Source: Mytilus edulis (Eukaryota). Taken from it: a DNA stretch of 64,000 bases. The translations under genes were made by a program, and so were the position numbers. The stretch lies in contig NC_092347.1 of the NCBI RefSeq assembly GCF_963676685.1, forward strand, positions 14,942,001 through 15,006,000. Reading direction: 5' to 3'. This document shows positions 2,028 to 58,854 of the stretch, piece after piece; the stretch's first letter is position 1; each line of letters begins with the position of its first letter. The notes under the pieces are model-generated. The model made no database searches. It worked only from the letters and a program-made list of their open reading frames with translations, and was not told the DNA's origin.

Positions 2028-4554
2028 CTAGAACACACCCGTGATATCGCTGGTCCGTGACTGAATTAAAGTATATAACTATGCGTAAGCCTTATTTTAG
2101 TATTGGTATTTTCATCTGATAAAGTCATGCCGATTATAAGATGCACAGTTTTCTCTGCTTTCAAAATCTTTCTGTTTGAACCCGTCGACCTGGAACTTAT
2201 CAATTGTTGGTATTTATTAATTATTTGGAAAACAAAAGGGCCTGAAATGGAGTATTTTTTTTAATTAACAGCATTGTCCTATAATAGTTATAAATAAAGT
2301 TGAATTCTTTGATTCGCTGTTTTACGTCATGCCCGCTAACAAATTGAAACCTGTACCTATACGCCTTATTTTAAGTCCAGATTTTTAGTATTCGTATTGT
2401 CATCTTAGAAAGTCGTACTGATTGAAATACTACAATAGGGAGCAATGTGACAATGATTGAATTTAGTAGTTTCAACCCTGTGATTATGACCCGTGTATAT
2501 AGCTTTTGTATATATACTTTTGGGAGAAAATTCGAAACCTTAGTCTGAGAAATTCTAAGTCTATACCAGTTGAAATTGTCGATGAAATGGAAAATATTGT
2601 AAAAGATAAACAGTTGGTGTTTGATAAATGGCGAATAGACTTTGAAAATTTATACAACGGAAGCAACAGTGACGAGTTTGATGATGAACATTACGATATG
2701 TAAAGTCTCATAAGTACCAATTAGAATCTAATATGGAGGACCTACTATTTGTTCCGAATGAATATTTGAACCGCAACATTACTTTAGATGAAGTTAACAG
2801 TATCGTTATGAACGCCAAATCAAAGTCTGCGAGTGGTTTCGATGAAATTCTATACAGTGTTCTGATATTCCCTGTTGTGATTGAGACACTGTTACAGCTG
2901 TTTCAGCTCATTTTGGACACTAGCCTTATACCATCAATTTGGAGGAAAACTGTCATTTGTCCTATACTAAAGGATACTTCTTCAGATACACGGCTGCCTA
3001 TGAACTACAGATGTGTTAGTCTACTATCGTGTATAAGCAAACTGTAAAGTGCTTTCATTAACAAGCGAATTACGCATTATTTAGAAAATCAGGATATACT
3101 CGCAGATGAACAGAACGGCTTCAGAAAAAATCGATCTTGTGAGGATCACATTTACACGCTGTACAGTATTGTCCGTAACAATAAGTCTCTCTTTATTGCG
3201 TTTATTAATCTAAGAAAATGTTTTGACTTCATAGACAGAGATATGATGCTGTATAAACTACCCATACACAACATTGATGGCAAACTGTACAACTCTGTGA
3301 AAAAGCATCTATCAGAATTCTGAATCTTGTGTCCGATTAAACAATATTTATCAATGATCAAGTAAAGGAATTGAACGATCTAAACGTAGGAATAGATTTA
3401 GATAATAGAAAATAGTCAGTTTTATTGTATGCGGACGACATAGCTATATTAGCGAAATCGGAATTGGACCTTCAATGTATTTTAGATAAACTTCACCAAT
3501 GGTGTAAGCGATGGCGAGTATTGATTAACACTGAAAAGTCGAAATGTATTCATTTTAGGAAAGGGAAATCTAAACAATTTCACCGTGGGCAGGAATCAGT
3601 TGGAATTTGTTAACGAGTACAAATACTTAGGTATAACAATTAGCTACAACGGCAGTTTTTTGTCAAATGTGGATCTTCTTGCAAAAAGTGCATGGCGGAC
3701 GAGCACTTGGGAATATAATTGCTAAAATCCATAATATTAAAGACTTTGGATATGAATCATATGAAAAAGTATTCAACTCATTTATTGTTCCTATACTTGA
3801 TTACTCGTCTGGTGTATGGGGATACCGAAAATATCAGTCAATAGACAATATTCAGAACAGGGCTATTCGTTACTATTTAGGAGTACACATATTTGCACCT
3901 ATCCTTGCTATACACGGAGATATTGGCTGAATCCCGAGTCAGTATCGGCGTTGGATCAATATGGTGAGATACTGGAATAGACTCATTCGATTTGACAACA
4001 ACCGCATAAGAAAATTATCAAAGTGAAATATATAGTTCGTGCATTTCATGTAAGACGTCAGTTGATGTATAACACTTAAATTTTTGGCACATTTAAAGCT
4101 TAAATTTCTGTTTACAAATATTTGTATGTCTATATATTTTTTTAATTTACTTACCTCAATAAAAGATTAGAACGTGATATAATTGTTATTTTATTTGAGG
4201 TGACTTATAGGTCCATTGGGCCGGGTGTATTAATATTTATTATATATTATATGTTTATAATCTATAAATAATTTACACATGTCACTATAATAAATAATTT
4301 ACTTACTTACTTACTTTATAGCAAAACCCTAAATACACCGTTTGGTGTCAGATGCGGAACGTACAGATAAGGTAATAGGTAACAGGTGACTATACTATTG
4401 GTATCGGTATCGGATTCGACCCGGAACTTGTTAATTATTGGCAATATTATTTATCTGGAAAACGAAACGGTATGGAGTGGGTTAATTAATTCTTTCATTT
4501 GTCGATTTTTCCCCATGACGGCTGACAAATTGGACCACGTTATTTTAGTATAGA
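2028..4554 (-). mobile_element. Non-autonomous Helitron, interrupted by a LINE
   Basis: On the minus strand it has 5'-TC (4554) and CTAG-3' (2028), a subterminal hairpin at about 2037-2054, and an A|T insertion site. It is colinear with the intact copy at 20192-20934. Confidence 0.82.
2521..4313 (+). mobile_element. 5'-truncated, decayed non-LTR retrotransposon (CR1/L2-like LINE)
   Basis: Frameshifted RT pieces (WRKTVICPILK...NYRCVSLLS, EQNGFRKNRSCEDHI, MYADDIAILA, KYLG, PILDYSSGVWG), then AATAAA and a (TACT)n tail at about 4300-4317. Confidence 0.9.
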
Positions 4555-4723
4555 TATATATCTGTATCTGTTACAATGTTATGTATAAATTCCAATATGT
4601 CAAAGAGACACCAACCCGACCAAAGAGGAGACGTTTCTATTTCTTCACAATTATAACAAAAATGTTGAAAAAAATTGAAAACTTAATGCTGAAACAAATC
4701 ATGGAAATAAAATTAAGGAAACA

Positions 4724-6310
4724 TGAACTCTTTCAGAAGGACACGTAGGCATTACAATCATTTATGAACCCTGTCAGAAAGACACATAAACATTACAATC
4801 AATGATAAACTCTTTCAGAAGGACACGTAGGCATTACAATCATTTATGAACCCTGTCAGAAAGACACATAAACATTACAATCATTGATGAACTCGTTCAG
4901 AAGGACACGTAGGCATTACAATCATTTATGAACCCTGTCAGAAAGACACATAAACATTACAATCATTGATGAACTCTTTCAGAAGGACACGTAGGCATTA
5001 CAATCATTTATGAACCCTGTCAGAAAGACACATAAACATTACAATCATTGATGAACTCTTTCAGAAGGACACGTAGGCATTACAATCATTTATGAACCCT
5101 GTCAGAAAGACACATAAACATTACAATCATTGATGAACTCTTTCAGAAGGACACGTAGGCATTACAATCATTTATGAACCCTGTCAGAAAGACACATACA
5201 CATTACAATCAATAAACTCTTTCAGAAGGACAAGTAGATATTGCAATCCTTGACGAACCCTGCTAGAAAGACACATAAACATTACAATCATTGATGAACT
5301 CTTTCAGAAGGACACGTAGGCATTACAATCATTGATGAACTCTTTCAGAAGGACACGTAGGGATTACAATCATTTATGAACCCTGTCAGAAAGACACATA
5401 CACATTACAATCAATAAACTCTTTCAGAAGGACAAGTAGATATTGCAATCCTTGACGAACCCTGCCAGAAAGACACATAAACATTACAATCATTGATGAA
5501 CTCTTTCAGAAGGACACGTAGGCATTACAATCATTGATGAACTCTTTCAGAAGGACACGTAGGGATTACAATCATTTATGAACCCTGTCAGAAAGACACA
5601 TACACATTACAATCAATAAACTCTTTCAGAAGGACAAGTAGATATTGCAATCCTTGACGAACCCTGCCAGAAAGACACATAAACATTACAATCATTGATG
5701 AACTCTTTCAGAAGGACACGTAGGGATTACAATCATTTATGAACCCTGTCAGAAAGACACATACACATTACAATCAATAAACTCTTTCAGAAGGACAAGT
5801 AGATATTGCAATCCTTGACGAACCCTGCCAGAAAGACACATAAACATTACAATCATTGATGAACTCTTTCAGAAGGACACGTAGGCATTACAATCATTGA
5901 TGAACTCTTTCAGAAGGACACGTAGGGATTACAATCATTTATGAACCCTGTCAGAAAGACACATACACATTACAATCAATAAACTCTTTCAGAAGGACAC
6001 GTAGATATTGCAATCCTTGACGAACCCTGCCAGAAAGACACATAAACATTACAATCATTGATGAACTCTTTCAGAGGGACACTTAGACATCATAATCAGT
6101 TATGAACCCTGCCAGAAAGACACATAAACATTACAGTCATTTATATTTCAGAAGGACACGTAGGCATTACAACCAATTATGAACCCTGTCAGAAATACAA
6201 ATACACAACAATCCTTGGCGGACCCTATCAGAAGGACATGTTTGCGTTCTTATCATTGGTAACCCTGTAAGAAGTAAATATGGCCATTACAATCATTATT
6301 GAACCCTTAA
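4724..6310. repeat. 41-bp minisatellite with 82-bp dimer and 202-bp higher-order repeats
   Basis: Alternating monomers tgaactctttcagaaggacacgtaggcattacaatcattta / tgaaccctgtcagaaagacacataaacattacaatcattga. A marker variant (aataaactc...gatattgcaatccttgacg) occurs at 5211, 5413, 5615, 5776 and 5978. Confidence 0.95.
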
Positions 6311-27330: not shown

Positions 27331-28764
27331 TTTAATTTGAAAATAAATAAAAATGGCCTTCAACACGGAGTCTTGGCTCACACCGAACAGCAAGCTATAA
27401 AGGTTGAATACTTAAAATTCTTTACTTGAGTTTTTGTTATGGTTTGACCATCAATTTTCCTAATATGATATCGCACGTTCTTTCAGATTTTTTTTTTTAC
27501 TTAATTGGCTTTAAAAGTTACAATGCATGATGTCGTCTGTTTATGTAGTTCATATGTGTTTTTCGTTTCTCGTTGGTTTTCCCGTTTGAATGGTTTTACA
27601 CTAGTAGTTTTGGGGCCCTCTATAACTTGCTGTTCGGTGTGAGCCAAGGCTCCGTGTTGCAGGTCGTACCTTGACCTATAATGGTTTACTTTTATGAATT
27701 ATTACTTGGGAGGAGAGTTGTCTCATTGGCACTCATACCACATCTTCCTATATCTATCTCTATCTATACATTTTTTTTTCAACAAAAGAATAATCACAAG
27801 AATATAAGTTTTGTAAGAAACGTGAGAAATCGTGTTGGACTTGAAGATAAGGCAAAGTGACAAATATCTGAAAGAATGAATCGTTATATGGTATTAAACA
27901 AAGAAATCAAATGATTTTTTAATTATCCAGAACTCTTCACAAACAAAACCCACATGTATACGCATTGAATAAATAGTGGGCTATTCTTAAATGATCACAC
28001 CGTAGAAGTAGTTGTGCTCTTAATCAATAAGATATTTTGTGAATTAACCCCATCAACTTAATAGTTTTTTTTACAATGGATAAACCTATTTTTTTTATTA
28101 TTATTAAATAATATCATCTCTGAACATTAATTTTCTTATAAATGACACGGTTGTTTGTGATGATTATAATAAATATTTAAAACAAATTCCTTTCAAGCTT
28201 TGTAAAAAGAAAGTTTCATTTTATGTATCGGAATGTGTAACAAGTGAATATTTCAATCCCCACTGGAAGGCCTCTGACGGACTGGGTGAGCATAAAATCA
28301 TAGCCGTTGACAAACAAGTTACAACCTAAAAACGTTTTACTGTCGACCACACTGTTATGCAATTAGTTCTATCTGAATATGAAACGACATGGCTTCTTTG
28401 ATCTTCTTGTTTTTTAAGAAGTAAATAAGAAGAGGTCGTCCAAAATTATTAAATTTTTGTCCTGAATTAATCAAATGCATTATTTAATGTACGATTTGGA
28501 GCGGAACTCTCAAGACTTGTGTTAAATTTCTTGTATAAAGAATGATAACTGCTACAGTTATATTTCCTTCCCGATGATGACAGACAGTATACTGTGGTAC
28601 ATATAATATATTTTCAACTGCTGAAAGTAAACGTATGAGTCAACAAAAACATTTTTCAAATGTTTCGTGCAGTCATTTTGGCTCTAAAGTAAAATAAAAA
28701 GAACTATGCTATATTTAACAGTTTCAATGTCTTTTATTTTTTATCCCCTTTTATAATATAACAT

Positions 28765-29660
28765 TGTTAAATGATAAGTGCAACATTCTCAGTGTAACTC
28801 AAAAACGCAAACCTTTAGACTTCACTTATAAATTACACAATCACTCTCTAGAAAAAGTCGACTCTACAAAATATTTAGGCTTATCTTTTCAATCAAATTT
28901 AAATTGGGACAAACATATCGATAACATGACATCTCTTGGATTTATTCGTAGAAACCTACAAATAGCATCACCTAAAGTTAAAGCTCATGCATATAAAGCT
29001 CTTGTCCGACCAAAATTATAGTACTGCTCAACAATTTGGGACCCACATCAAAAACAGCAAATTTTACAAATCGAAAAAGTTCAGAGAAGAGCAGCACGCT
29101 TCTCATACAACCGCTTCCATAACACCAGCTCAGTTACTGAAATGATGACAGACCTAAATTGGTACCCACTCGAAATTAGGAGTTTACGATACAGACTTGT
29201 TTTCTTTTACAAAATTATTCATGAAATTGTTGCAGTCCCTACACATAACCTTTTGATCCCACTAGACAATAGAACAAGACATAGCAATCCACACTCATTT
29301 AAGCAAATACAAACATCTAAAGACAGCTATAAATATTCATTTTATCAATGAACTGTTATAAATTGGAATCATCTGCCACAACAAATAGTATCATGCAGTA
29401 CAGTAGAGGGATTCAAGAGTATGATCTCAGAATCTGCTCTCATCCCCACATTCTATCCCTAACTATTCTGTTATCAAAAGTATATAGTTTTATCACAATT
29501 TATTTTTTTCAAATGTACAAACGTTATGTTGATTTTTTGATTTTGTTATTTATGATGTTTTGTTGCTAAAGTGTAAATGATAAATTTTATAGTCGACGCC
29601 CGGCGAATAATCTTCAATGATTGAAGAATCGCTAGAAACATAAAGAAGAGAAGAAATTTA
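28765..29660 (+). mobile_element. LINE (CR1/L2-like) 3' fragment, pseudogenised
   Basis: KCNILS...KYLGLSFQSNLNWDKHI...SLGFIRRNL...AYKALVRPKL*YCSTIWDPH...IEKVQRRAARF...YKYSF, followed by a GAA/A-rich tail at about 29640-29675. Confidence 0.88.
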
Positions 29661-31194
29661 AAAAAAAAAAAAAAATAATACGCTAGAATTTTGAATTTGA
29701 TTTGTGTGTTGCATTATGTGACGATATTATTACTTTTGCAATTATGATTGTTCTAATTATCAAAGTTATGTTCTTGATATTCATATAAAACATAACTTTT
29801 ATTCTCTTTCTTTACATAAAAACATCAAAATGCGTATAGTCATTATTATTGTAAAGAATATTTAATAGATAATCTTATAAATAAACGTTACAAAATATTA
29901 CAAGTATCTCTTCAAACTAATCTGTCACAAAACTGACATGTTAGAAATCTGAAGTGAACCGTAAACTATATTTTAAAAGACTAGTGCAGTTATTGATTAA
30001 AGAAATGCAAAAGAATTACTTACCATTTAATACATTTTAAATTTTAAATTTAAATTTCAAACTACAGAGAATGTTAACGTTTATAAATAAGATTTGTCGA
30101 AACGTGCGTTAAGAAATATGTAAATGAAACCAATAGTAAGGTATATTTCCCTTTTTTTTAAAGTCTTTCAGGTGCAACATACCATATCAAAGATCATACC
30201 TCGTGTATTGTTATACAGCACAAAGTATATTGTTGCCATATATCTAGACGAATGAAAACTATATGTAAGTCATTTAAACATATTTATATTAATATTTTAT
30301 CTTATTTCTGATATAAAAAAAAATATAAAAAAACTTTTTATGTTTATGTCTTACAGTTGCCTATAATTGTTTACATCCGCTTCATTTGCTCTTTGATGGA
30401 TGGTTATCTCATTGTCATTCATATCACATATCCTTATTTATTTTCATATTGACAATAACACGGCCATAAAAAAAATCGATAAAAAGACAAAAAGTATACA
30501 AAACAAACAAAACTGAAATTGTTCATGATATTCTAGTATTCTTGTCTTTTATGTTTGTGCCATTGTAACTTGTTTGTTGCTTGTCTTTCGTTTTTGTTAT
30601 GTGATTTGTGTATGTTTCTTTGTACTAATACATCCCGTCATTGTGTTATTGTATTATGGTAAATTTGTGTATTATTATCTTTACATTTAGCCGATGTGCT
30701 TAGTCTATATGTCATATTGTGCTTCTTTGTTTCATATCTGTTTTTTAGTGATTGGGATTTTAACACAATGTTGACATTTTTACCTAGTATGTCTGTTTGT
30801 TTTGTTCACGCATCGTTGTGAAAATAATGGAATTTTATGCGCCTGTCATACAAGTGGGAGATTTAGCTAGCTATAAAGCCAGGTTCATTCAGAAAATGCC
30901 TGTACCAAGTCAGGAATATGACAGTTGTTATCCATTCATTTGATGTGTTTGTGCTTTTGATTTTGCCATTTGATTAGGAACTTTCCATTTTGAATTTTCC
31001 TCGGAGTGCAGTATTTTTGTTATTTTACTTCTCATCATTAGTTGCTGTTTTTATCGTTTGAAATGTTTCCAAAATAAAACTATATTATCTAGTTCTTTTG
31101 TATGTGTTTTCGGAGAGAGATATTTTATTTTGTTTTGTATGATTTATTTAATATATAACTTTAAATTACATATTTTTCTTTTTTTTAGAATAAA

Positions 31195-31989
31195 ATGTCT
31201 TATATACCAAATAACCGTTCAATTGATGACATGAAACTGTGGTCAGTAAAACGTTTTGATGTAAAAGCTGGTCAGAAGTGTTGTTACATCCGGAGTTGCG
31301 CAATACTTCCAAATAAACAACTGATATTTGCTGACGAAAACAACCAACGACTTGTTGTTGTAGGAACCGACGGCAAACATGTATGTGATATTATAGTTTC
31401 TCAGAGACCGTTTGATATTGAACCTATAGATTCTGCAAAAATTGCTGTATCCTATGGAATTTCAAAGTATATTGAAGTAATAAACATAGAAGATAAGAAA
31501 GTAGAGAGCCGAATGGAATTGAAGGGATTTTGTTCCGGACTCACCCTTGTTAATGGAAAACTACTTGTTCTTGTGAACGGACATGGAATACAAGAAATTG
31601 ATTTGACGATTAAAACTGTTACCTCGTTAGAATTGCCAGTTAAACAGTCATTTGTAATTACTTCTGGTGGTGAACGCTTATACTGCGCAGATTTAAAATC
31701 AAATTCCTTGTGTTGTTATATGTCTGGAATATTGGTCTGGCGGTTGACGTCACCTCTGTTGCATATCAGCCAAGCAATTTCTGCTGATGAATACGGTAAT
31801 GTTTTTCTGACAGAGACCGATACTAATCAAATAGTAGCTATTTCATTTGACGGTGCAAATACTCGAAAACTGTTGGATGATAAGCAAGGGATTAATTTAC
31901 CATCAGCAGTGTATTATGACAAATCTACCAAACATTTACTAGTTTGTAACCGAGAAAACGGTCGAGCTTTCTTGTATAGTTTAATGTAA
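31195..31989 (+). CDS. NHL-repeat / six-bladed beta-propeller protein (resembles the C-terminal domain of bivalve TRIM-NHL-like proteins); probably a terminal exon
   Basis: 264-aa uninterrupted ORF with NHL-like blades (LIFADENNQRLVVV, RPFDIEPID, ISADEYGNVFLTETDTNQIVAIS, INLPSAVYYDKSTKHLLVCN). A polypyrimidine tract and AG at 31187-31188 lie 6 nt before the ATG, in frame. AATAAA follows the stop. Confidence 0.82.
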   Translation: MSYIPNNRSIDDMKLWSVKRFDVKAGQKCCYIRSCAILPNKQLIFADENNQRLVVVGTDGKHVCDIIVSQRPFDIEPIDSAKIAVSYGISKYIEVINIEDKKVESRMELKGFCSGLTLVNGKLLVLVNGHGIQEIDLTIKTVTSLELPVKQSFVITSGGERLYCADLKSNSLCCYMSGILVWRLTSPLLHISQAISADEYGNVFLTETDTNQIVAISFDGANTRKLLDDKQGINLPSAVYYDKSTKHLLVCNRENGRAFLYSLM

Positions 31990-39735: not shown

Positions 39736-39928
39736 CTAAAACTTTTCAGACTCTGGTTCAAATGCAACATTGTCTTTCCCATTGACATGTATTGTCACTA
39801 CTTTCGGTTTCTCGTCTTCCATCCTCGGCCAGTGATATTGTATGAGCGCAATGTAAACATAGCTCCCAATGACTGATCCAACTAATGGCCCAACAATTGG
39901 CACCCAAAACCAGTTGTAATTTCTGTAA
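39736..39928 (-). CDS. Aquaglyceroporin exon 6 (terminal)
   Basis: TTACAG acceptor; encodes [16 protein letters not shown] (TM6); TAG stop at 39736-39738. Confidence 0.92.
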
Positions 39929-42900
39929 CTGTAAATACAACGTTAAAAAATCAATAAATTCAACTTATATCTAGGTCCAATTAGAAAAACTTATTTAAAT
40001 AAACGAAACGAATCGCTCAAAGTCAATCAAAGGTCATTAATTGCTTTAACGGTATATAAAGTCTCAATACGTGTATGTTCTTTGTACAGCATATTAGTGA
40101 CTGTTGTGGCTCCTGTTAACTAATAGTACTGATTGTTGATGATGCATTTTGATTAAATTAAACATAAATGATTCTAAAATCAAACAGAAATTACTAAAAA
40201 ATATTACGAAGATAGAACTAAGTATTTGAAAAATACACGTGACTAAGATAACAAACCTGATAGGTTCCAAGCCCCAACCAGCTATGACTGTAAACAGTCG
40301 GAGTCAGAAATCTCTTGCACAGTTTATAGCATAACCACAGTTAATACACGTGACTTAAATAACAAACCTGATAGGTTCCAAGCCCCAGCCAGCTATTTCT
40401 GTAAACAGTCGGGGTCCGAAATCTCTTGCACAGTTTATAGCATAACCACAGTTAATACATGTGACTTAAATAACAAACCTAATAGGTTCTATTCCCCAGC
40501 CAGCTTATACTGTAAGCAGTCGGGGTCCGAAATCTCTTGCACAGTTTATAACATAACCACAGTTAAGACAAGTGACTTAAATAACATACCTGATAGGTTC
40601 TAATCCCCAGCCAGCTATTACTGTAAACAGTCGTGGTCCGAAATCTCTTGCACAGTTTATAGCATAACCACAGTTAAAAGCAAAACAGGTCCCGATTGCC
40701 GTTACAATCATTCCCATTGCTATTGGTATAACACCTTTAGGTGGCATCATGTTCTTCTCGTCTGCTACAGCATGAATACAACCAAGTAGCAAAAATGTTC
40801 CGAACACCTGCAGAATAGTGGGAAAATATGTGATATCTACATTGCTTTATTTGAACGAATGCTTTTCTTTTCAATAGTTTTCTTTCATATTACTAGGCAA
40901 ATCAAGTGGCCCACTGGATATACAGCAAGATGAATTTATATTTTTCATAAGTTCTTTTATTGTAATGTTTTATGTCTCAATCTATAAAAAAAAATGTATG
41001 ATCGAAACTTTATTTTAAACAACAACTTACTTGATCGAAAAATGCATTAGTTGTAGATACGAACTCCTGTGGAAATGTGGAGAATATTCCCGCCGTAGAC
41101 GTGTTACCATATGTTGACCTTACACCTCCGTCATAATGGTTGATTGCGTCTGAATAACAATAAAAAAAATAATGCCTTTAAAGCAGAAGCGGTATTAAGA
41201 CGCATATGACATATAAAATTTAGTGCAAATTCTGGCCAATTTAAATTAACAAGACTGTGATTGTTCAGAAATAAAAACTAATTTTACATATGGAAAGTTA
41301 ACCAAGGCAAAAAAAGGCTAAAAAAACTTTAAAAAATATTATTAGAAAATTTTAGTTCCCGATAACTTCTATTATTTAGTTAAAAGATTGAACTTAATGA
41401 CCTTTCTTTCATTGTGTGTGCGTCAAAAGCGATTGCCTCTGAATTCCACCAAGAACCCTGAAAACCTTCAGATTTAAAAATCAAGGATATATGTATACGT
41501 GCTTGAGAAGCGTTCTGACTAGAAGGGACCATAAGATATAGGCAAATCAACCTCAGGTCAAATCTATCTACATCTATCCTATAAAACTTGTAATAAAAGA
41601 GAAATTTTATGCTTGTCAATCATGAATAAATAGAGATGTAGAATATACGTCAACGAGACACCAACCAAACGACATACATAACCAAAATACATCTACAGGT
41701 AAACATACCTTCATTTTCACTAAAAAAAATCGGAAGTCAACCAAGAAAAGTTCAATGATCAATTCATCTTGAAGAATAATACTGTATGATACTGAATCGT
41801 TTTGCACTTTGGGTTCGAAAATAATAATGTAATAATATCACATAACATCCTGCAGACGACAAGACGTGAAAAGTTAGGTGAATGTAATAATATTTCCTTT
41901 ATTTGTCTTACATCTTTGATAAGATCTTCAAGTTTTCGAATTTAAAGGAGAACACTTCAATAAGGCTGAAATATCAATATTCTCATAACTTTTAATTACT
42001 GCATATATATAGATTTACCAAAAAACATTTTTCCCCAAGGTGTATCATACCAAGATGTTGGTTTGATGGTCACATTTTATTGGACGAAACAATTTATACA
42101 GAAATAGCCATTTTATTCAAGTTTGTCAATTTTGACATTTATACGACTTCACAGTGTCACATACTACATTTCTGAACTAAAATGACCAGACTATATCATC
42201 CTTTTAATAATACAAAGACAATTTAGGTAATCTAAGAGTGTGAAATATTTTTTACAATTTTTGTTATTTTATAGCGTACTCGCTGTACATTGTGTATAAA
42301 GAATTACAGAAACTGCATCAAACAGCACGGCCTCTTTCTTACTTTTTATTTGAAAAAATATATCTTATTTATGTAGCTTGTTAAAACAATTTACACGGTG
42401 TCCTTGGCACATCCATTTGTAAAACAAAAATACCTTGCTTATCTTTCCTGAAATGTATACTATGGTCTGAATTTTGTGCCTCTTAAGTTACATGGTGGTG
42501 GAACTTTTTTGTAATTGTAAACTCTTTGTGTTTGTTTTTGTTTTTGTTTTTACTTGCTCTATTATTTGTTTTAACTTGCTCTATTATGAAATATGGTTTT
42601 TTTTGCAGTTTTCAATCAAAGATATAATTACCATGATATATTCCAAACTGAACAGCTGCTGCCACAAATGATCCTGCTAACTGTGCTATACAGTAGAGGG
42701 GCCATTTCCACCACGCACATTTACCCATTATACAGAAACCAAGAGTTACTGCTGGATTAAGATGACCACCTAAAAGAAAGATACCTCAATCATACTATAT
42801 TTTTTTCAATACACAATTGACATTTTAAATACATAAATTTAATAAATGATAAGCACAGATATTACCACAGACGATTGTATGCATTTCAAAGATGTGCCGC

Positions 42901-45900
42901 TACTCATTTCTGTAGTAATATGAAAAACATTAGATAGAGTAAGATTGTCAATGAGACAGCTATCCACCAAAGTTCAAATGAAGTGGATGTAATGACTTTA
43001 AAGATTATATATAGCAATGATCTGTTTTATTTTGTTGTCATAGAGATCGCTCTAAGCCTGTGTTTTTATTTTCATTTTCGATAAGTAGTGAGAGCATAGT
43101 GAAAGTATTATATATATTTCTATTCCACTGAACTAAAATTACAAATGTAATTAACGAACATTGGAGGGTTTACGTCACTCTCACTATGTATGACTTTTAA
43201 ATACATGCAAGCAGCAGTTCTGATCGATTTATTTCAGAGACACGTTATAGATGAGGGTCTTAGTATTAACATTCAAAACCCTTTCTTACCATAATCTGTA
43301 ATAAACTTTGTCTAGACCTAATATAGCTGTAATATGTGTTAAAAATAATCATCTAATAATATTTAATCTTTCAAAACGTCTTATCACAGACAAATATATA
43401 AAAAAAAATGATTTTAATATAGATGCTCCACTTTTACAGTTATGTTATTTACAGACTTTATCTCAAGTTTTATAAAAATCATGTAGCAAACATCTTTAAA
43501 ATCGCAAACTTAAAGCTTAAGACATCGGAAGTAAGTCCTTATTTTAACCTTTTTATCTATACTTACCAGACACTCCTCCGCTAAAATAAATGCCAAATGT
43601 CAGCCCAAGTCCTCCAGCAATGTTAAGAGATAGAAAATTACCCATTTGTCCATTACTCAGTGTTAACTGTGCACCGGCTCCAATGGCAAAAGTCTGAAAC
43701 AAAAAGCAAAAAGTTGAAAGTACTTATATCTTACATATGAAGGTCGTTTATCCAAAAGCCAACCCCATATATATTGTTTAACACATAAGAATATGTAGGA
43801 CTTACTTTAAGAGATCTCAATCAACAATTTGAAGCCCATGTAAAAAAAAGATTGATCTTGAGTTATGATAATTTTTCTGAAACCACATCGACTTTGTTAT
43901 TTCCTTATTACCAAATTCAGTACGATTTAATTATCTCCTGAACAACATGTTTTTGTGGGTTGTGTTTATTTGTTATATTTTTTATCTGATACTTATAAAT
44001 AAATCTGTCAAAATTTTGGATTTGTTTTTTAGCATTGTCAAATATATGGAACAATAAATTTGCCAGTTTAAAACTTTATATATTCAGGATTTTGATACAT
44101 GCGGAATGGATTTTGATCATTGTCGAAGACGTACGTCGGCTTATAGTTCTCTGGTGGAGAGATGTCTCATTGGAAATCATAACATATTTAATTTTAAAAT
44201 TTTATATTATAAATAGGCGACTTTCATTGCTTTTGTTTATTGAGAATTATTTGGCTCTTTACGAATGAATTTATCACTAAGATAACGAAATAGTTTTATC
44301 CTTAAATATGATCAAATATGGGAATGTAGATACAATTCAATTTGATTTAAGTAAATATTTATTGAGAAGGTCAAAACAGCATACCATGGAATTATCGTTA
44401 ATACCGAGCCAAATGAAAAGACAAATAGTCTTGACCTCTTTATCTCTTTAGCTTCATCATATGTGTTTTTTAAATTTCTTCTATTTATTTAAGATTTTAT
44501 TATTTCTTTTAGCTTGTCAAATATGGGCAATTTTGTTTTAGAAAATATGGATCAGATCACTTTACAAATCGGAATTGTAATGGACGTATTTTCCTGTTGA
44601 AATAACGTTACATTAATGGTATTTGTTGACAGCTATCAGAAAGATCGGGTGACAGAGTCTTAATCTTTAAAGTTCTCCGAGTGGAATTAAGTCCAGAGAT
44701 TCGAAATTTAAGTACTATTATATGTTTGAGTAAATTTGGTAAGACTTATAGCGGCCATTAAGCGCATTGAAGATAATTTAAGAAAACTTGAGACCTCAGT
44801 GGTGGATCCGGGGGGGAAAGGGGGGTCCGGGGGTTGGAACCCCCCTTTTTTTACGATCAATGCATTTGAATGGGGGCATGTAGTTGGAACCCCCCTTTTA
44901 ACCTGGGTTGGGAACCCCCCTTTTTTAAAATGGCTGGATCCGCCCCTGGACCTGCACATACATTTAGTATATGTTCAAAGCCAGTTACTCATTTTTCATT
45001 TACCGGGAAACAGTTTCTCCAAAACTAGACATGAATGCTGATGCAGAAAATTTCACAATTTTAGATTCAACTTTACGTAATGGATTTATGGTGTATAACA
45101 AATCTCCTAGTATGTCATGGTCTACATTATGATTTATTTACTGTTTTTTACTATTTTATGTAAGTAAGGAAATTTCCACTTACAAATTAAAAGTTACTTG
45201 AAAGCTGACGGGCTATGTTAAAATGACCAAAGTTTTGATTAAACTCTAAATTTTATTTTTGTCTTCTGTATTTTGATCTAGCTTTTAATGTTTATTACGA
45301 AAAATCCATAAAAAGTAAAATCTCAAAATACCGAAATCCATGGAAAATTAAAAAATAGGAAAGTCCTTTTTCAAATAACAAAATCAATAGAATGGAAAAT
45401 ACCTGTCATTTTTATTGACCACTATTTGTGAGCAAAACAAACATATATAAGATGTAAAAATGTCATAAATTGATGTGCATCAGTCAACATTGTGTTATAA
45501 TCCTAATTAGTATTAAAACAAGCTACTATTTAACAAAGCAAAACACTTTATAGACAAATCATACAGGCAAAAACGGAAGACAAAAATACAAATATTAGCC
45601 TAAAAAATTGCCATTTTTTTTTTTTCATTATTTCTCATAATATAAAACATTAATTGTTTCCAGTTTATACGTAATTTTTAATATTTAAAGAATTTAGGAA
45701 CTTTATAAATCTAATCAAGAACCCATAAAGGGCATAATTTTGCAACAATAGTATACACAATATGATTGGAAAAAAGCAAAAAGGAACCTAATACTATACT
45801 ATCTCATAAACATGTTTAACCCCGCCGCAATTTTGCGCCTGTCCCAAGTCAGGAGCCTCTGACCTTTGTTAGTCTTGTATGATTTTTAATTTTAGTTTCT

Positions 45901-51849: not shown

Positions 51850-54800
51850 TAGGAATGACAGCAATGGAGGACAGGAATCGTGGGCCACCAATGGTAAAAG
51901 AATGACATTAATGGAGGACAGGATTTGTGGACCGCCAATGGTAAAAGAATGACAGCGATGATCTTCAAGAATCAAGGACCATCAATGGCAAAGAAGGACA
52001 AAAATAATGGACCACCAATGGTAACATAATGACAGCCATGAGGAACAAAAATAATAGGCCACCAATGGTAAAATAGTGACAGCCACGAAGAGCAGAAATA
52101 ATAGACCATCAATGGTACAATAGTGACAGCCACGAAGAACAGAAATAATGGACCACCAATGGTAACATAGTAACAGCCATGAAGAACAACAGAAATAATA
52201 GACCAACAATGGTAAAATAGTGACAGCCATGAGGAACAAAAATAATGGGCCACCAATGGTAAAATAGTGACAGCCATGAAGAACAAAATAATGGACCAAC
52301 AATGGTAAAATAGTGACAGCCACGAAGAACAGAAATAATGGACCACCAATGGTAAAATAATGACAGCCATGAAGAACAAAAATAATGGGCCACCAATGGT
52401 AAAATAGTGACAGCCACGAAGAACAAAAATAATGGGCCACCAATGGTAAAATAGTGACAGCCATGAAGAACAAAATAATGGACCAACAATGGTAAAAAAG
52501 TGACAGCCATGAAGAACAGAAATAATGGACCACCAATGGTAAAATAGTGACAGCCACGAAGAACAGAAATAATGGACCACCAATGGTAACATAATAACAG
52601 CCACGAAGAACAGAAATCATGGACCACCAATGGTATCATAATGACAGCCATGAGGAACAAACATAATGGGCCACCAATGGTAAAATAGTGACAGCCATAA
52701 AGAACAAAATAATGGACCAACAATGGCAAAATAGTATCAGCTATGAAGAACAGACATAATGGGCCGACAAAGGTAAAATAATGACAGCCATGAAGAACAG
52801 AAATAATGGACCACCGATGGTAAAAAGAAAGACGGAATCATGGACCACCAATGGTAAAAGAATGACAGCAATGAAGGACAGGAATGAAGGACAACAATGA
52901 AGGACAAAAATCATTCACCACCAATGGTAAAAGAATGATAGCAACAAAGGACAGCAATCATGGACCACCAATGGTAAAAGAATAACGGAAACAAAGGACA
53001 GCAATCATGGACCACTAATGGTAAAAGAATGACAGTAATGAAGGACAGCAATCATTGACCACCAATGGTAAAAGAATGACAGCAATCACGGACCACTAAT
53101 GGTAAAAGAATGACGGCAATGAAGGACAGAAACCATTGACTACCAATGGTAAAAGAATGACAGCAATGGAGGACAGGAATCATGGACCACCAATGGTAAA
53201 AGAATAACAGCAATCATGGACCACCAATGGTAAAAGAATGACAACAAAGGAAGACAGGCATCGTGGACCACCAATGGTAAAAGATGGACAGCAATCATGG
53301 CCCACCAATGGTAAAAGAATGACAGCAGTGAAGCACATGAATCATTGACCATCAATGGTAAAAGAATGAAACACGCAATGAAGGACAGCAATGAAGGACA
53401 GGAATCATAAACCACCGACGGTAAAAGAATGACAGCAATGAAGAACAGAAATCATAGACCACCAATGGCAAAAGCTTATCAGCAATGGAGGACAACAATC
53501 ATGAACCACCAATGGTAAAAGAATGACATCAACAAAGGACAGGAATCATGGACTACCAATGGTAAGAGAATGACAGCAATGAAGGACAGCAATCATGGAC
53601 CATCAATTGGAAAACAAAGACAGCAATGAAGGACAGCAATCATGGACCACCAATGGTAAAAGAATGATAGCAATGAAGGACAGCAATCATGGACCACCAA
53701 TGGTAAAAGAATGACAGCAATTAAGGACAACAATCATGGACCACCAATGGGAAAAGAATGACAGCAATGAAGGACAGCAATCATGGACTACCCTACCAAT
53801 GGTAAAAGAATGTCAGCAATGAAGGACAGCAATCATGGACCACCAATGGTAAAAGAATGACAGCAATGAAGGACAGGAATCATGGACCACCAATGGTAAA
53901 AGAATGACAGCAATGAAGGACAGCAATCATGGACCACCAATGGTAAAAGAATGACAGCAATGAAGGACAGCAATCATGGACCACCAATGGTAAAAAAATG
54001 ACAGCAATGAAGGACAGCAATCATGGACCACAAATGGTAAAAGAATGACAGCAACAAAGGACAGCAATCATGGACCACCAATGGTAAAAGAATGACAGCA
54101 ATGAAGGACAACAATCATGGACCACCAATTGGAAAACAAAGACAGCAATGAAGGACAGCAATCATGGACCACCAATGGTAAAAGAATGATAGCAATGAAG
54201 GACAGCAATCATGGACCACCAATGGTAAAAGAATGACAGCAATTAAGGACAACAATCATGGACCACCAATGGGAAAAGAATGACAGCAATGAAGGACAGC
54301 AATCATGGACTACCCTACCAATGGTAAAAGAATGTCAGCAATGAAGGACAGCAATCATGGACCACCAATGGTAAAAGAATGACAGCAATGAAGGACAGCA
54401 ATCATGGACCACCAATGGTAAAAGAATGACAGCAATGAAGGACAGCAATCATGGACCACCAATGGTAAAAGAATGACAGGAATGAAGGACAGCAATCATG
54501 GACCACCAATGGTAAAAGAATGACAGCAATGAAGGACAGCAATCATGGACCACAAATGGTAAAAGAATGACAGCATCAAAGGACAGCAATCATGGACCAC
54601 CAATGGTAAAAGAATGACAGCAATGAAGGACAACAATCATGGACCACCAATTGGAAAAGAATGACAGCAATGAAGGACAGCAATCATGGACCACCAATGG
54701 TAAAAGAATGACATCAATGAAGGACAACAATCATGGACCACCAATGGGAATAGAATGACAGCAATGAAGGACAGCAATCATGGACCACCAATGGTAAAAT

Positions 54801-56900
54801 AATGACAGCAATGAAGGACAGCAATCATGGACCACCAAATTGGCAATGGTAAAAGAATAACAGCAACAAAGGACAGGAATCATGGACCACCAATGGTAAA
54901 AGAATGGCAGGAATGAAGGACAGCAATCATGGACCACCAATGGTTAAAGAATGGCAGGAACAAAGGACAGCAATCATGGACCACCAATGGGAAAAGAATG
55001 ACAGCAATAGAGGAGAGCCGTCATGAAGCTATGAAGAACAGACATAATGGGCCGACAAAGGTAAAATAATGACAGCCATGAAGAACAGAAATAATGGACC
55101 ACCAATGGTAAAAAGAAAGACGGAATCATGGACCACCAATGGTAAAAGAATGACAGCAATGAAGGACAGGAATGAAGGACAACAATGAAGGACAAAAATC
55201 ATTCACCACCAATGGTTAAAGAATGATAGCAACAAAGGACAGCAATCATGGACCACCAATGGTAAAAGAATAACGGAAACAAAGGACAGCAATCATGGAC
55301 CACTAATGGTAAAAGAATGACAGTAATGAAGGACAGCAATCATTGACCACCAATGGTAAAAGAATGACAGCAATCACGGACCACTAATGGTAAAAGAATG
55401 ACGGCAATGAAGGACAGAAACCATTGACTACCAATGGTAAAAGAATGACAGCAATGGAGGACAGGAATCATGGACCACCAATGGTAAAAGAATAACAGCA
55501 ATCATGGACCACCAATGGTAAAAGAATGACAACAAAGGAAGACAGGCATCGTGGACCACCAATGGTAAAAGATGGACAGCAATCATGGCCCACCAATGGT
55601 AAAAGAATGACAGCAGTGAAGCACATGAATCATTGACCATCAATGGTAAAAGAATGACACACGCAATGAAGGACAGCAATGAAGGACAGGAATCATAAAC
55701 CACCGACGGTAAAAGAATGACAGCAATGAAGAACAGAAATCATAGACCACCAATGGCAAAAGCTTATCAGCAATGGAGGACAGCAATCATGAACCACCAA
55801 TGGTAAAAGAATGACATCAACAAAGGACAGGAATCATGGACTACCAATGGTAAGAGAATGACAGCAATGAAGGACAGCAATCATGGACCATCAATTGGAA
55901 AACAAAGACAGCAATGAAGGACAGCAATCATGGACCACCAATGGTAAAAGAATGATAGCAATGAAGGACAGCAATCATGGACCACCAATGGTAAAAGAAT
56001 GACAGCAATTAAGGACAACAATCATGGACCACCAATGGGAAAAGAATGACAGCAATGAAGGACAGCAATCATGGACTACCCTACCAATGGTAAAAGAATG
56101 TCAGCAATGAAGGACAGCAATCATGGACCACCAATGGTAAAAGAATGACAGCAATGAAGGACAGCAATCATGGACCACCAATGGTAAAAGAATGACAGCA
56201 ATGAAGGACAGCAATCATGGACCACCAATGGTAAAAAAATGACAGCAATGAAGGACAGCAATCATGGACCACCAATGGTAAAAGAATGACAGCAATGAAG
56301 GACAGCAATCATGGACCACAAATGGTAAAAGAATGACAGCAACAAAGGACAGCAATCATGGACCACCAATGGTAAAAGAATGACAGCAATGAAGGACAAC
56401 AATCATGGACCACCAATTGGAAAAGAATGACAGCAATGAAGGACAGCAATCATGGACCACCAATGGTAAAAGAATGACATCAATGAAGGACAACAATCAT
56501 GGACCACCAATGGGAATAGAATGACAGCAATGAAGGACAGCAATCATGGACCACCAATGGTAAAATAATGACAGCAATGAAGGACAGCAATCATGGACCA
56601 CCAAATTGGCAATGGTAAAAGAATAACAGCAACAAAGGACAGGAATCATGGACCACCAATGGTAAAAGAATGGCAGGAATGAAGGACAGCAATCATGGAC
56701 CACCAATGGTTAAAGAATGGCAGGAACAAAGGACAGCAATCATGGACCACCAATGGGAAAAGAATGACAGCAATAGAGGAGAGCCGTCATGGAACACAAA
56801 CTGTTAAATCATGACTCCAATGAAGGACAGCAATCATGGATCACCAATGGTAAAAGAATTACAGCAACGAAGGACAAGAATCACGGACCACCAATGGTGA
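51850..56900. repeat. About 5-kb minisatellite with a 47-bp monomer and nested block duplications
   Basis: Monomer aatcatggaccaccaatggtaaaagaatgacagcaatgaaggacagc. Block 52741-55028 is repeated at 55029-56790, and the first block has an internal 522-bp duplication. Confidence 0.96.
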
Positions 56901-58854
56901 AAACAACTCACCAGGAAAACCAGGCTTATCATTTATTACGCCATGTGCGCGTTTTGTCTTCATGGAGTCACCAGAGGTATTCCAAACAAACCAGTTCGTA
57001 GACACAAAGTCATACATAATCACAATAATCTTGTGAAAAATAAGATGACGTTGTAGGAATGTATTATGCGAAAGATTTTCATCGGAGACAGTATGACGTA
57101 GAAGTCAGCACCTATATGTTAATGTTTGCTACAAGTACAATGATAAGCCTTATGTAATATAAATAAATTAAATTCATCTATTTGTTTCAATATATTGTAT
57201 ATGTAAAATGAAATCAGTTGACCAGGATAAAAGAAGACTTACGTCTTATCAATAAAAATATATAATTAACTTTTTAATTGATGAAATGTATATATGCTTT
57301 TATGTTATACACACTTGATTCAGATTGTAAATTGACCCAAATAAGTTGAAATGCCAACAATTTCTTTTTGGTTGAAAAGAGAGCGCGATTTTCCCACACT
57401 CTATATATTTAAAAAAAAAAAAAAAAAAAAAGAATTAATAGTTTGGTATAACGAAGCTCGGATGTAACATTATAAAATTATTTTCTACTTCAAGAACAGT
57501 TTTCATGTATCTATAGCATGAGCTTATCTCAAACTATTTTGAATTTAAATTACTGTCTTGGTAACCATTGCAACGACAAAAAGGGAAAATTTTATTATTT
57601 TCGTATTTGATATTTCAAGAAAACTTGGCATGCGTGCATATTTTTAATCAAAGATTAGCAATTTCTACCTATTTTCAAAATCTTTCATCCTTAAATAGTA
57701 TGACTCTTAAATAGTCCACTCACGTCCAGAAACAGTATTAAAACATCTAATTAATCATCGTCAGACTCTCAATAAAAATGGTTTTGTTAGGTCACTTAAA
57801 ACATTTCTATAAATCAAGGTTAAATTTCCTATGTAAATACTGTAAATTTCTTCTAAATATAAGTATGGTTCAATAAATAAACAAATTATTTCAAGTTGAT
57901 GAATTGCTAATGGAAAAAAATTTGATTACATGCAACTGTTATTTTTTATTATATCTTTTTGAGTGGTTCAAAACAGGCGTACCCTCCAATGATGTATTGA
58001 TGTTACGTGTGCTCTTATTTATATTGCAATTCGAAAGGCCAATGCGTGCTTTTTAACAACATTTAATAATTATTCACACACATGTAATTTGTTTACGCAA
58101 TTTCGATGTTTTTTGCTACTTTTAAGACTACTTCTAATTACATATCACTCAATGTAAATATACATCTTTGATTTTCCCACGCTTTATCTGTATTTATTCT
58201 CGATACAGATTTATTCATAAAACGCATGAAAAAGCAGAAAAAACACCGTCCAGTTTTTATTTGATAACCTATAAATTTTCGGGTTACACTTCCGTTTACC
58301 TGTTAGTTCAACCACATGAAAAAACATGATAGACATTTATTCAAATCTTAAGAAATATTGCATGCCTTACACGTAACCAAACATACAATCAAAAAAAAAA
58401 TACAAAAAAAAGTGGAAGCGTGTTATAAACAAAAACCAACTTTGAATTCTAAAGTTTTCCATACAGATTTTTCGAATTTGAATATAACAAAAAATATTTT
58501 TTAATCAGATACACGTATGTGTCATTCACTATGTTTTATAAAGAATGAAGTGAACAACTTGATTTCCAATAACGGAAAAAACGGATGTAGAGCAAATATA
58601 TATTTTTACTAGAATACAAGTAGACCAATATGTAGAAGAAACTAAGCTTCAGGCAAATTAGCATTGTTGATTATTATACTATTATACATCTTTTGTCATG
58701 AAAAAATACTTCATAATATATATAGCTTTAAAGCTTCCCACTAAGCAACACACATTCATGCATATTTTTTTTTAAATCTTTGATTTTCCCACGCGTAAGC
58801 TATGATCATTCTCTATATAGGTTTATTCATAATATCGTATGGCAAAGCAAATAT

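Follow-up and report, generated by a model that had tools for sequence, protein, structure and literature searches.

The window, by which we mean the whole stretch of 64,000 nucleotides of Mytilus edulis DNA that was analysed, carries an aquaglyceroporin gene on its minus strand (Table 1). Joining six exons at their GT-AG ends yields an open frame of 289 amino acids (exon 1b form), identical over its whole length (100%, 289 aa) to P0009, the RefSeq Mytilus edulis protein 'aquaporin-10-like isoform X1'. Exons 1a and 1b are duplicates of one another (72% identical over 25 aa) that provide two alternative N-termini; in the AEFxGT motif exon 1b has the usual Thr and exon 1a has Ser. The end of exon 5 belongs to a 111-bp unit present in 4.0 copies, which differ pairwise at 7–15 of the 111 bases. 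The three extra copies sit in intron 5, and the exon-like part of two of them contains in-frame stops. The copies retain GT donor-like sites, yet they were left out of splicing in all six of the contig runs described below. The contig also has two paralogue exons with an NPA motif, at a distance of about 4 Mb. Elsewhere in the window, one minisatellite lies between the two first exons (51988-56903, a 47-bp unit repeated about 103 times) and another at 4723-6207 (a 41-bp unit, about 36 times). A 266-codon open stretch on the plus strand (31189-31986) shows a weak NHL-repeat match (E 4e-4) and is likely a beta-propeller exon of a neighbouring gene; the open stretches at 2688-3044 and 28719-29348 (plus strand) resemble, by eye, fragments of a LINE-type reverse transcriptase.

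Table 1. Features of the Aqpg2 gene in window coordinates; codons are given in reading direction.
Feature	Position	Strand	Content and evidence
Exon 1a, alternative first coding exon, 25 codons	59449..59523	-	N-terminus of isoform X2 (P0007); tblastn 100% over 25 aa; GT donor
Exon 1b, first coding exon, 25 codons	49733..49807	-	N-terminus of isoform X1 (P0009)
Exon 2	43567..43693	-	G52 (43615-43613); joined to exon 3 in contigs X1 and X2
Exon 3	42632..42769	-	First motif NPA, N72-P73-A74 (42758-42750); splice joints in contigs
Exon 4	41031..41149	-	Loop C; splice joints in contigs
Exon 5	40590..40807	-	Helix 4, helix 5, loop E; splice joints in contigs
Residues in exon 5		-	G192, C194, C199, Y201, N204-C205-A206, R207, D208
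NCA motif	40649..40657	-	AAC TGT GCA; read from the sequence
Codon of N204	40657-40655	-	
Codon of C205	40654-40652	-	TGT
Codon of C199	40672-40670	-	
Codon of C194	40687-40685	-	
Exon 6	39736..39928	-	Helix 6 with P236 and P240, C-terminus, stop; splice joints in contigs
111-bp unit, four copies	40232..40677	-	88 terminal bases of exon 5 and 23 bases of intron 5

Splicing was assessed in the contig runs X1, X2, X3, X4, X7 and X14 (four studies, three organism labels), chosen from 14 putative-RNA runs as those containing the stretch. None of the listed runs with the stretch is recorded as RNA; we infer that these six derive from RNA, as their joints skip the predicted introns exactly. The joints of exon 4 to 5 and of exon 5 to 6 were found at the predicted introns in 6 of 6 runs, the latter (39928-40590) bypassing the extra copies of the 111-bp unit. 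The Cys codon was covered without any difference in five of the six; X1 has two unplaced differences in exon 5, with no listed row at the Cys codon. A joint 39928-40368 in X2 was considered as donor use by repeat copy 3; most likely it represents an exon 5 allele whose two synonymous changes bring it closer to copy 3, a reading favoured by the end of the shared contig at 40605, adjoining those two sites. Sampling about 6 in 100 of each of the raw RNA runs X22 and X23 gave zero reads on any exon; their reads mapped only to an interspersed repeat within intron 2 (42939-42992), a short element that attracts many reads from other loci.

The protein matches the MIP family (Pfam PF00230, E 8.5e-50, 170 bits with a cut-off of 25), and TIGR00861 also scores above its cut-off. 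The AlphaFold2 model (mean pLDDT 86.7, normal helices) predicts six helices and two half-helices, in which N72 precedes helix 73-81 and N204 precedes helix 205-220, so that both half-helices would be capped by the motif Asn. Exon 5 encodes N204-C205-A206-R207-D208 in loop E, and the codons of exon 3 give a canonical first NPA, which bears out the initial annotation on both motifs. The motif pair is thus NPA/NCA instead of NPA/NPA, and membership of the MIP family stands because non-canonical motifs are known from this family. The five positions P1–P5 that Froger et al. in 1998 reportedly defined for glycerol facilitators are occupied by F139, D208, R212, P236 and I237, with the Asp following the filter Arg. 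When solved structures were ranked, AQP3, AQP10, AQP7 and GlpF all came above the water-specific aquaporins. The best sequence matches were human AQP10 and AQP3 (PDB 6f7h, 9qsx, 8y8n; E 6e-73 to 4e-71), and these two were also the best fold matches (rmsd 1.0–1.6 Å). The usual aquaglyceroporin filter W/F-G-Y/F-R is absent; the filter reads G52-G192-Y201-R207, with Gly (G52) in place of Trp at the filter site of helix 2. AQP10 likewise has Gly at this site and Cys at the position of C199. Both AQP10 and AQP3 differ from the window protein in being NPA/NPA; one turn above the filter Gly, the window protein has N49 and AQP10 a Phe.

Aqpg2 is defined by Gly replacing Trp at helix 2, and its filter has been published as G-G-Y-R (Jia et al. 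2025, PMC12771848). The window gene has Gly at this filter site, stands apart from the tandem Aqpg1 paralogues, and encodes a protein that agrees, by eye, nearly letter for letter with the Mytilus Aqpg2 proteins in the supplement of PMC12771848. Going by its sequence, the gene is the mussel aquaglyceroporin Aqpg2 of that study. The supplement (Table S3 and the protein file) holds no M. edulis Aqpg2, though the window carries an intact, spliced gene. Aqpg2 likely conducts glycerol, water and comparable small neutral solutes passively. Our search of the literature outside subscription journals found no assay of transport by a mussel Aqpg2.

The spread of NCA was determined in an alignment of the best 120 full-length homologues, 118 of which show the motif. 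Cys at the motif centre was confined to the Mytilus cluster, and Pro was retained in 117 of the 118 close homologues. NCARD is present in all members of the Mytilus cluster that cover the motif (14 of the 15 listed, the remaining one being an N-terminal fragment). NCA also occurs in 3 of 93 short hits, two of which match a Bathymodiolus-type and a Perna-type exon by eye. A wider view comes from the supplement of PMC12771848, with 14 Aqpg2 proteins of 13 species. N204, A206, R207 and D208 are invariant in all 14, and position 205 is Cys in 12, Val in 1 and Pro in 1. The holders of NCA are three Bathymodiolus, Gigantidas, Limnoperna, Perna and five Mytilus species (M. chilensis with two copies); Mytilisepta virgata has NVA and Arcuatula senhousia NPA, so that Cys205 is kept in 11 of 13 mussel species from two families. 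The motif is therefore neither a sequencing error nor missing from RNA or from orthologues, in agreement with the initial annotation, which had also recorded the AAC-TGT-GCA codons in each of the intronic duplicates (found here in 3/3 copies). The same annotation had linked NCA to intertidal life, and this link found no support: the mussels bearing NCA live in cold seeps, at a vent, in fresh water and on the coast. Judged by this distribution, NCA is an old trait of the Mytilida as a whole and not specific to the intertidal. The loop-E filter position of Limnoperna Aqpg2 carries Asn instead of Tyr.

A quick tree of 41 proteins, from which isoform duplicates, P0042 and most bacterial hits were excluded, grouped the Mytilus sequences with proteins of chiton, abalone, limpet, snail, scallop and pearl oyster in a clade of 17 members (SH-aLRT 100). 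This Gly-filter clade is separate from the Trp-type mollusc clade. Jia et al. describe Aqpg2 as mussel-specific (PMC12771848); as placed in our tree, the Gly-filter Aqpg2 paralogue is pan-molluscan and predates the mussels (P0002, P0020-P0027, P0033, P0036, P0057). Pro is kept by all 11 non-mytilid members of the clade that cover the site, which indicates that NCA was added later, within the mussels. Most likely, Cys would have been gained once in the ancestor of the Mytilida, changing later to Val in Mytilisepta and reverting to Pro in Arcuatula. Parsimony by hand weakly prefers this course, at three steps versus four for separate gains (Arcuatula grouping with Perna). The change from Pro to Cys would take two base changes, probably by way of Ser. 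No residue co-varying with C205 was found among the mytilid Aqpg2 candidates T189 and H165: T189 is shared by the Arcuatula protein, which has NPA, and H165 is replaced by Leu in Perna and Limnoperna, which have NCA. Two further features were seen among the members of the tree. Mussels have a His in loop B (H70), where all 11 covering non-mussel members of the tree have Ser, Tyr, Cys or Val, and P0002 (Gigantopelta aegis) has NPC at both motifs.

Proline-less second motifs are found in other channels too. Six of 150 diverse representatives have an N-x-x without Pro at this site (NMA twice, and NAA, NSA, NLA and NLS once each), five of the six with a plain NPA as the first motif, and none of the 150 has NCA. 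In yeast Fps1 the motifs are NPS/NLA. For classical aquaporins of mussels, loop-E NSA is given in 8 of the 9 shown of 23 places. AQP7 (NAA/NPS), PfAQP (NLA/NPS), trypanosome AQP2 (NSA with NPS) and algal MIPB (NPS/NAA) resemble the window protein in that a small or aliphatic residue takes the place of one stacking Pro; they differ in pairing this change with a Ser in the other motif, whereas the window protein has a plain NPA there and Cys as the new residue. C-terminal NAA and NLA of bacteria have been described in print (PMC6912568). The initial annotation, which had set NCA beside variants such as those of AQP7 and Fps1, thus finds support: the motif belongs with variants of the NAA, NLA and NSA type. 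The supplement of PMC12771848 also contains M. coruscus Aqpc61 with an independent NCA, Aqpc61-like proteins with NPA/NSA, and Aqpc62 with NPS/NTA. Aqpc61 and Aqpc62 are like Aqpg2 in having no Pro at the loop-E position, and unlike it in subfamily, in their water-type filter and in their independent origin. In the main text of PMC12771848, whose motif analysis deals with the first NPA and the filter, 'NCA' and 'cysteine' have 0 occurrences, and our search of the aquaporin literature outside subscription journals found no remark on an NCA motif. One 'NCA' alongside the NPA motif, in an NMR study of AQP1, is probably the name of an NMR experiment.

The initial annotation had also pointed to a cluster of three cysteines at the pore. 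The three residues are indeed present; that they form a special feature did not hold up, and 'at the pore' is a matter of interpretation. The position of C199 carries Cys in 45 of the 118 homologues, 48 of the 150 distant representatives and human AQP10, that of C194 in 24 of the 150 representatives. A helix-5 wheel puts C194 about 160 degrees away from G192, which faces the pore. Among the 14 Aqpg2 in the supplement, C194 is matched by Cys in four to five (M. chilensis twice, M. galloprovincialis and M. trossulus, with the window protein in addition), the rest (9/14) having Ser or Ala. As far as the compared sequences go, only four Mytilus species, close relatives of one another, have the three cysteines jointly, and two of the three residues are common elsewhere. 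With numbering around the mercury sites of AQP1, AqpZ and AQP3 that is in part our own assumption, the mercury-sensitive site of AQP1/AqpZ, that of AqpZ L170C and that of AQP3 C40 align to Y201, V188 and I29, none of which is Cys. These sites are described as AQP1 C189/AqpZ T183C, AqpZ L170C and AQP3 C40 (PMC11353066); the mercury-binding C40 of AQP3 is thus I29 in the window protein.

The window protein is best described as an Aqpg2 with Cys replacing the Pro of the second motif, and this Cys is likely a buried packing residue and not a sensor, to which we assign a probability of roughly 0.7. Cysteine has a volume close to that of proline. The burial of C205 we infer from homology to solved structures. 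N72, N204 and R207 would still carry out the pore chemistry, and the side chain of C205 would pack on P73, as A95 does on P227 in human AQP7. The two NPA prolines normally stack together and support the half-helices; in AQP7 this packing falls to A95, with a buried area about 10% lower, and water and glycerol pass through AQP7 better than through GlpF (PMC7339978). Within the pore, water is bound by the side chains of the two Asn and the three filter residues only (bioRxiv 10.1101/2022.03.28.486021). In the well-known variants, a Ser in the other motif bonds the amide freed by the loss of Pro, and a free backbone carbonyl of helix 6 points at the nitrogen of the half-helix-E Pro (PMC3111385). 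The window protein retains the helix-6 prolines and has no Ser partner in its other motif. The freed amide NH of C205 may be satisfied by the helix-6 carbonyl already in place, which would explain why the Ser partner of the NPS type is not needed. The effect would be small, at most a slightly looser junction of the half-helices. The wide G-G-Y-R filter is the more likely determinant of selectivity; the modelling of Jia et al. gave no difference in channel properties between the Aqpg1 and Aqpg2 filters (PMC12771848), which weighs against a markedly wider filter. Against the packing role it counts that Pro is nearly invariant among the close homologues, that variant motifs are perhaps not fully equivalent (PMC3111385), and that the retention of Cys in so many species of two families could mean selection for the thiol.

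In principle, the loss of Pro could itself tune permeability: with neither a Pro stack nor a Ser partner the junction would be flexible and, in combination with the filter Gly, would let larger solutes pass (polyols, urea, metalloids), the cause being the missing Pro and not the thiol. We consider this unlikely, though more probable than the other alternatives. The junction of AQP7 (NAA/NPS), with about 10% less buried area, is more flexible than that of GlpF (PMC7339978), and Pro is absent in 13 of the 14 Aqpg2 in the supplement of PMC12771848. In addition, the window protein has an Asn three residues before G52, where AQP10 has a space-filling Phe. However, the 11 covering non-mytilid proteins combine the Gly filter with Pro, as does Arcuatula Aqpg2, and the flexibility of AQP7 is attributed mainly to F74 (PMC7339978). 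The view that the motif is an artefact of assembly, a private allele or a sign of a decaying gene is refuted by the data. The broken partial copies of exon 5 within the intron and the missing M. edulis entry in the supplement of Jia et al. would fit it, but the 289-aa frame is open, splicing is correct in every contig run of the four studies, and the motif is common to two mussel families.

A quite different role would be that of a switch in the middle of the channel that responds to redox state, sulfide or heavy metals, with C205 acting by itself or together with C199. The channel would then shut when oxidation, persulfidation or metal binding where the half-helices meet displaces N204 and R207. 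Its attraction is that C205 adjoins N204 and is two residues from R207, that Cys is retained across most of the mussel species compared, including vent and seep mussels exposed to sulfide and metals, and that cysteines off the pore can modulate aquaporins allosterically via the filter Arg (PMC11353066). Against this stands that habitat does not predict NCA and that C205 occupies the position of a helix-packing Pro. Since position 205 is Val in Mytilisepta and Pro in Arcuatula, the thiol is dispensable in two lineages. Neither C194, mostly Ser or Ala in Aqpg2, nor the ordinary C199 adds to the case, and the known mercury sites have other residues here. A redox gate is thus unlikely, and a thiol switch of the kind outlined seems quite improbable; the thiol chemistry at the pore foreseen by the initial annotation runs into the same observations. 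If true, such a switch would be a gate embedded in an NPA motif against the entry of H2O2, sulfide or arsenite, in mussels from the shore to hydrothermal vents.

Overall, NCA is real, conserved, expressed and apparently unremarked, and it is a small variant among the NPA motifs without Pro, a class that recurs. With it, Cys joins the residues that can replace the Pro of the second NPA, here without the Ser partner of the well-known variants. The value for structure-function work on aquaporins is modest, and would be larger only if the thiol gates the pore. Within one orthologue the mussels offer a natural series, with NCA in most species, NVA in Mytilisepta and NPA in Arcuatula, that informs on the role of this Pro.
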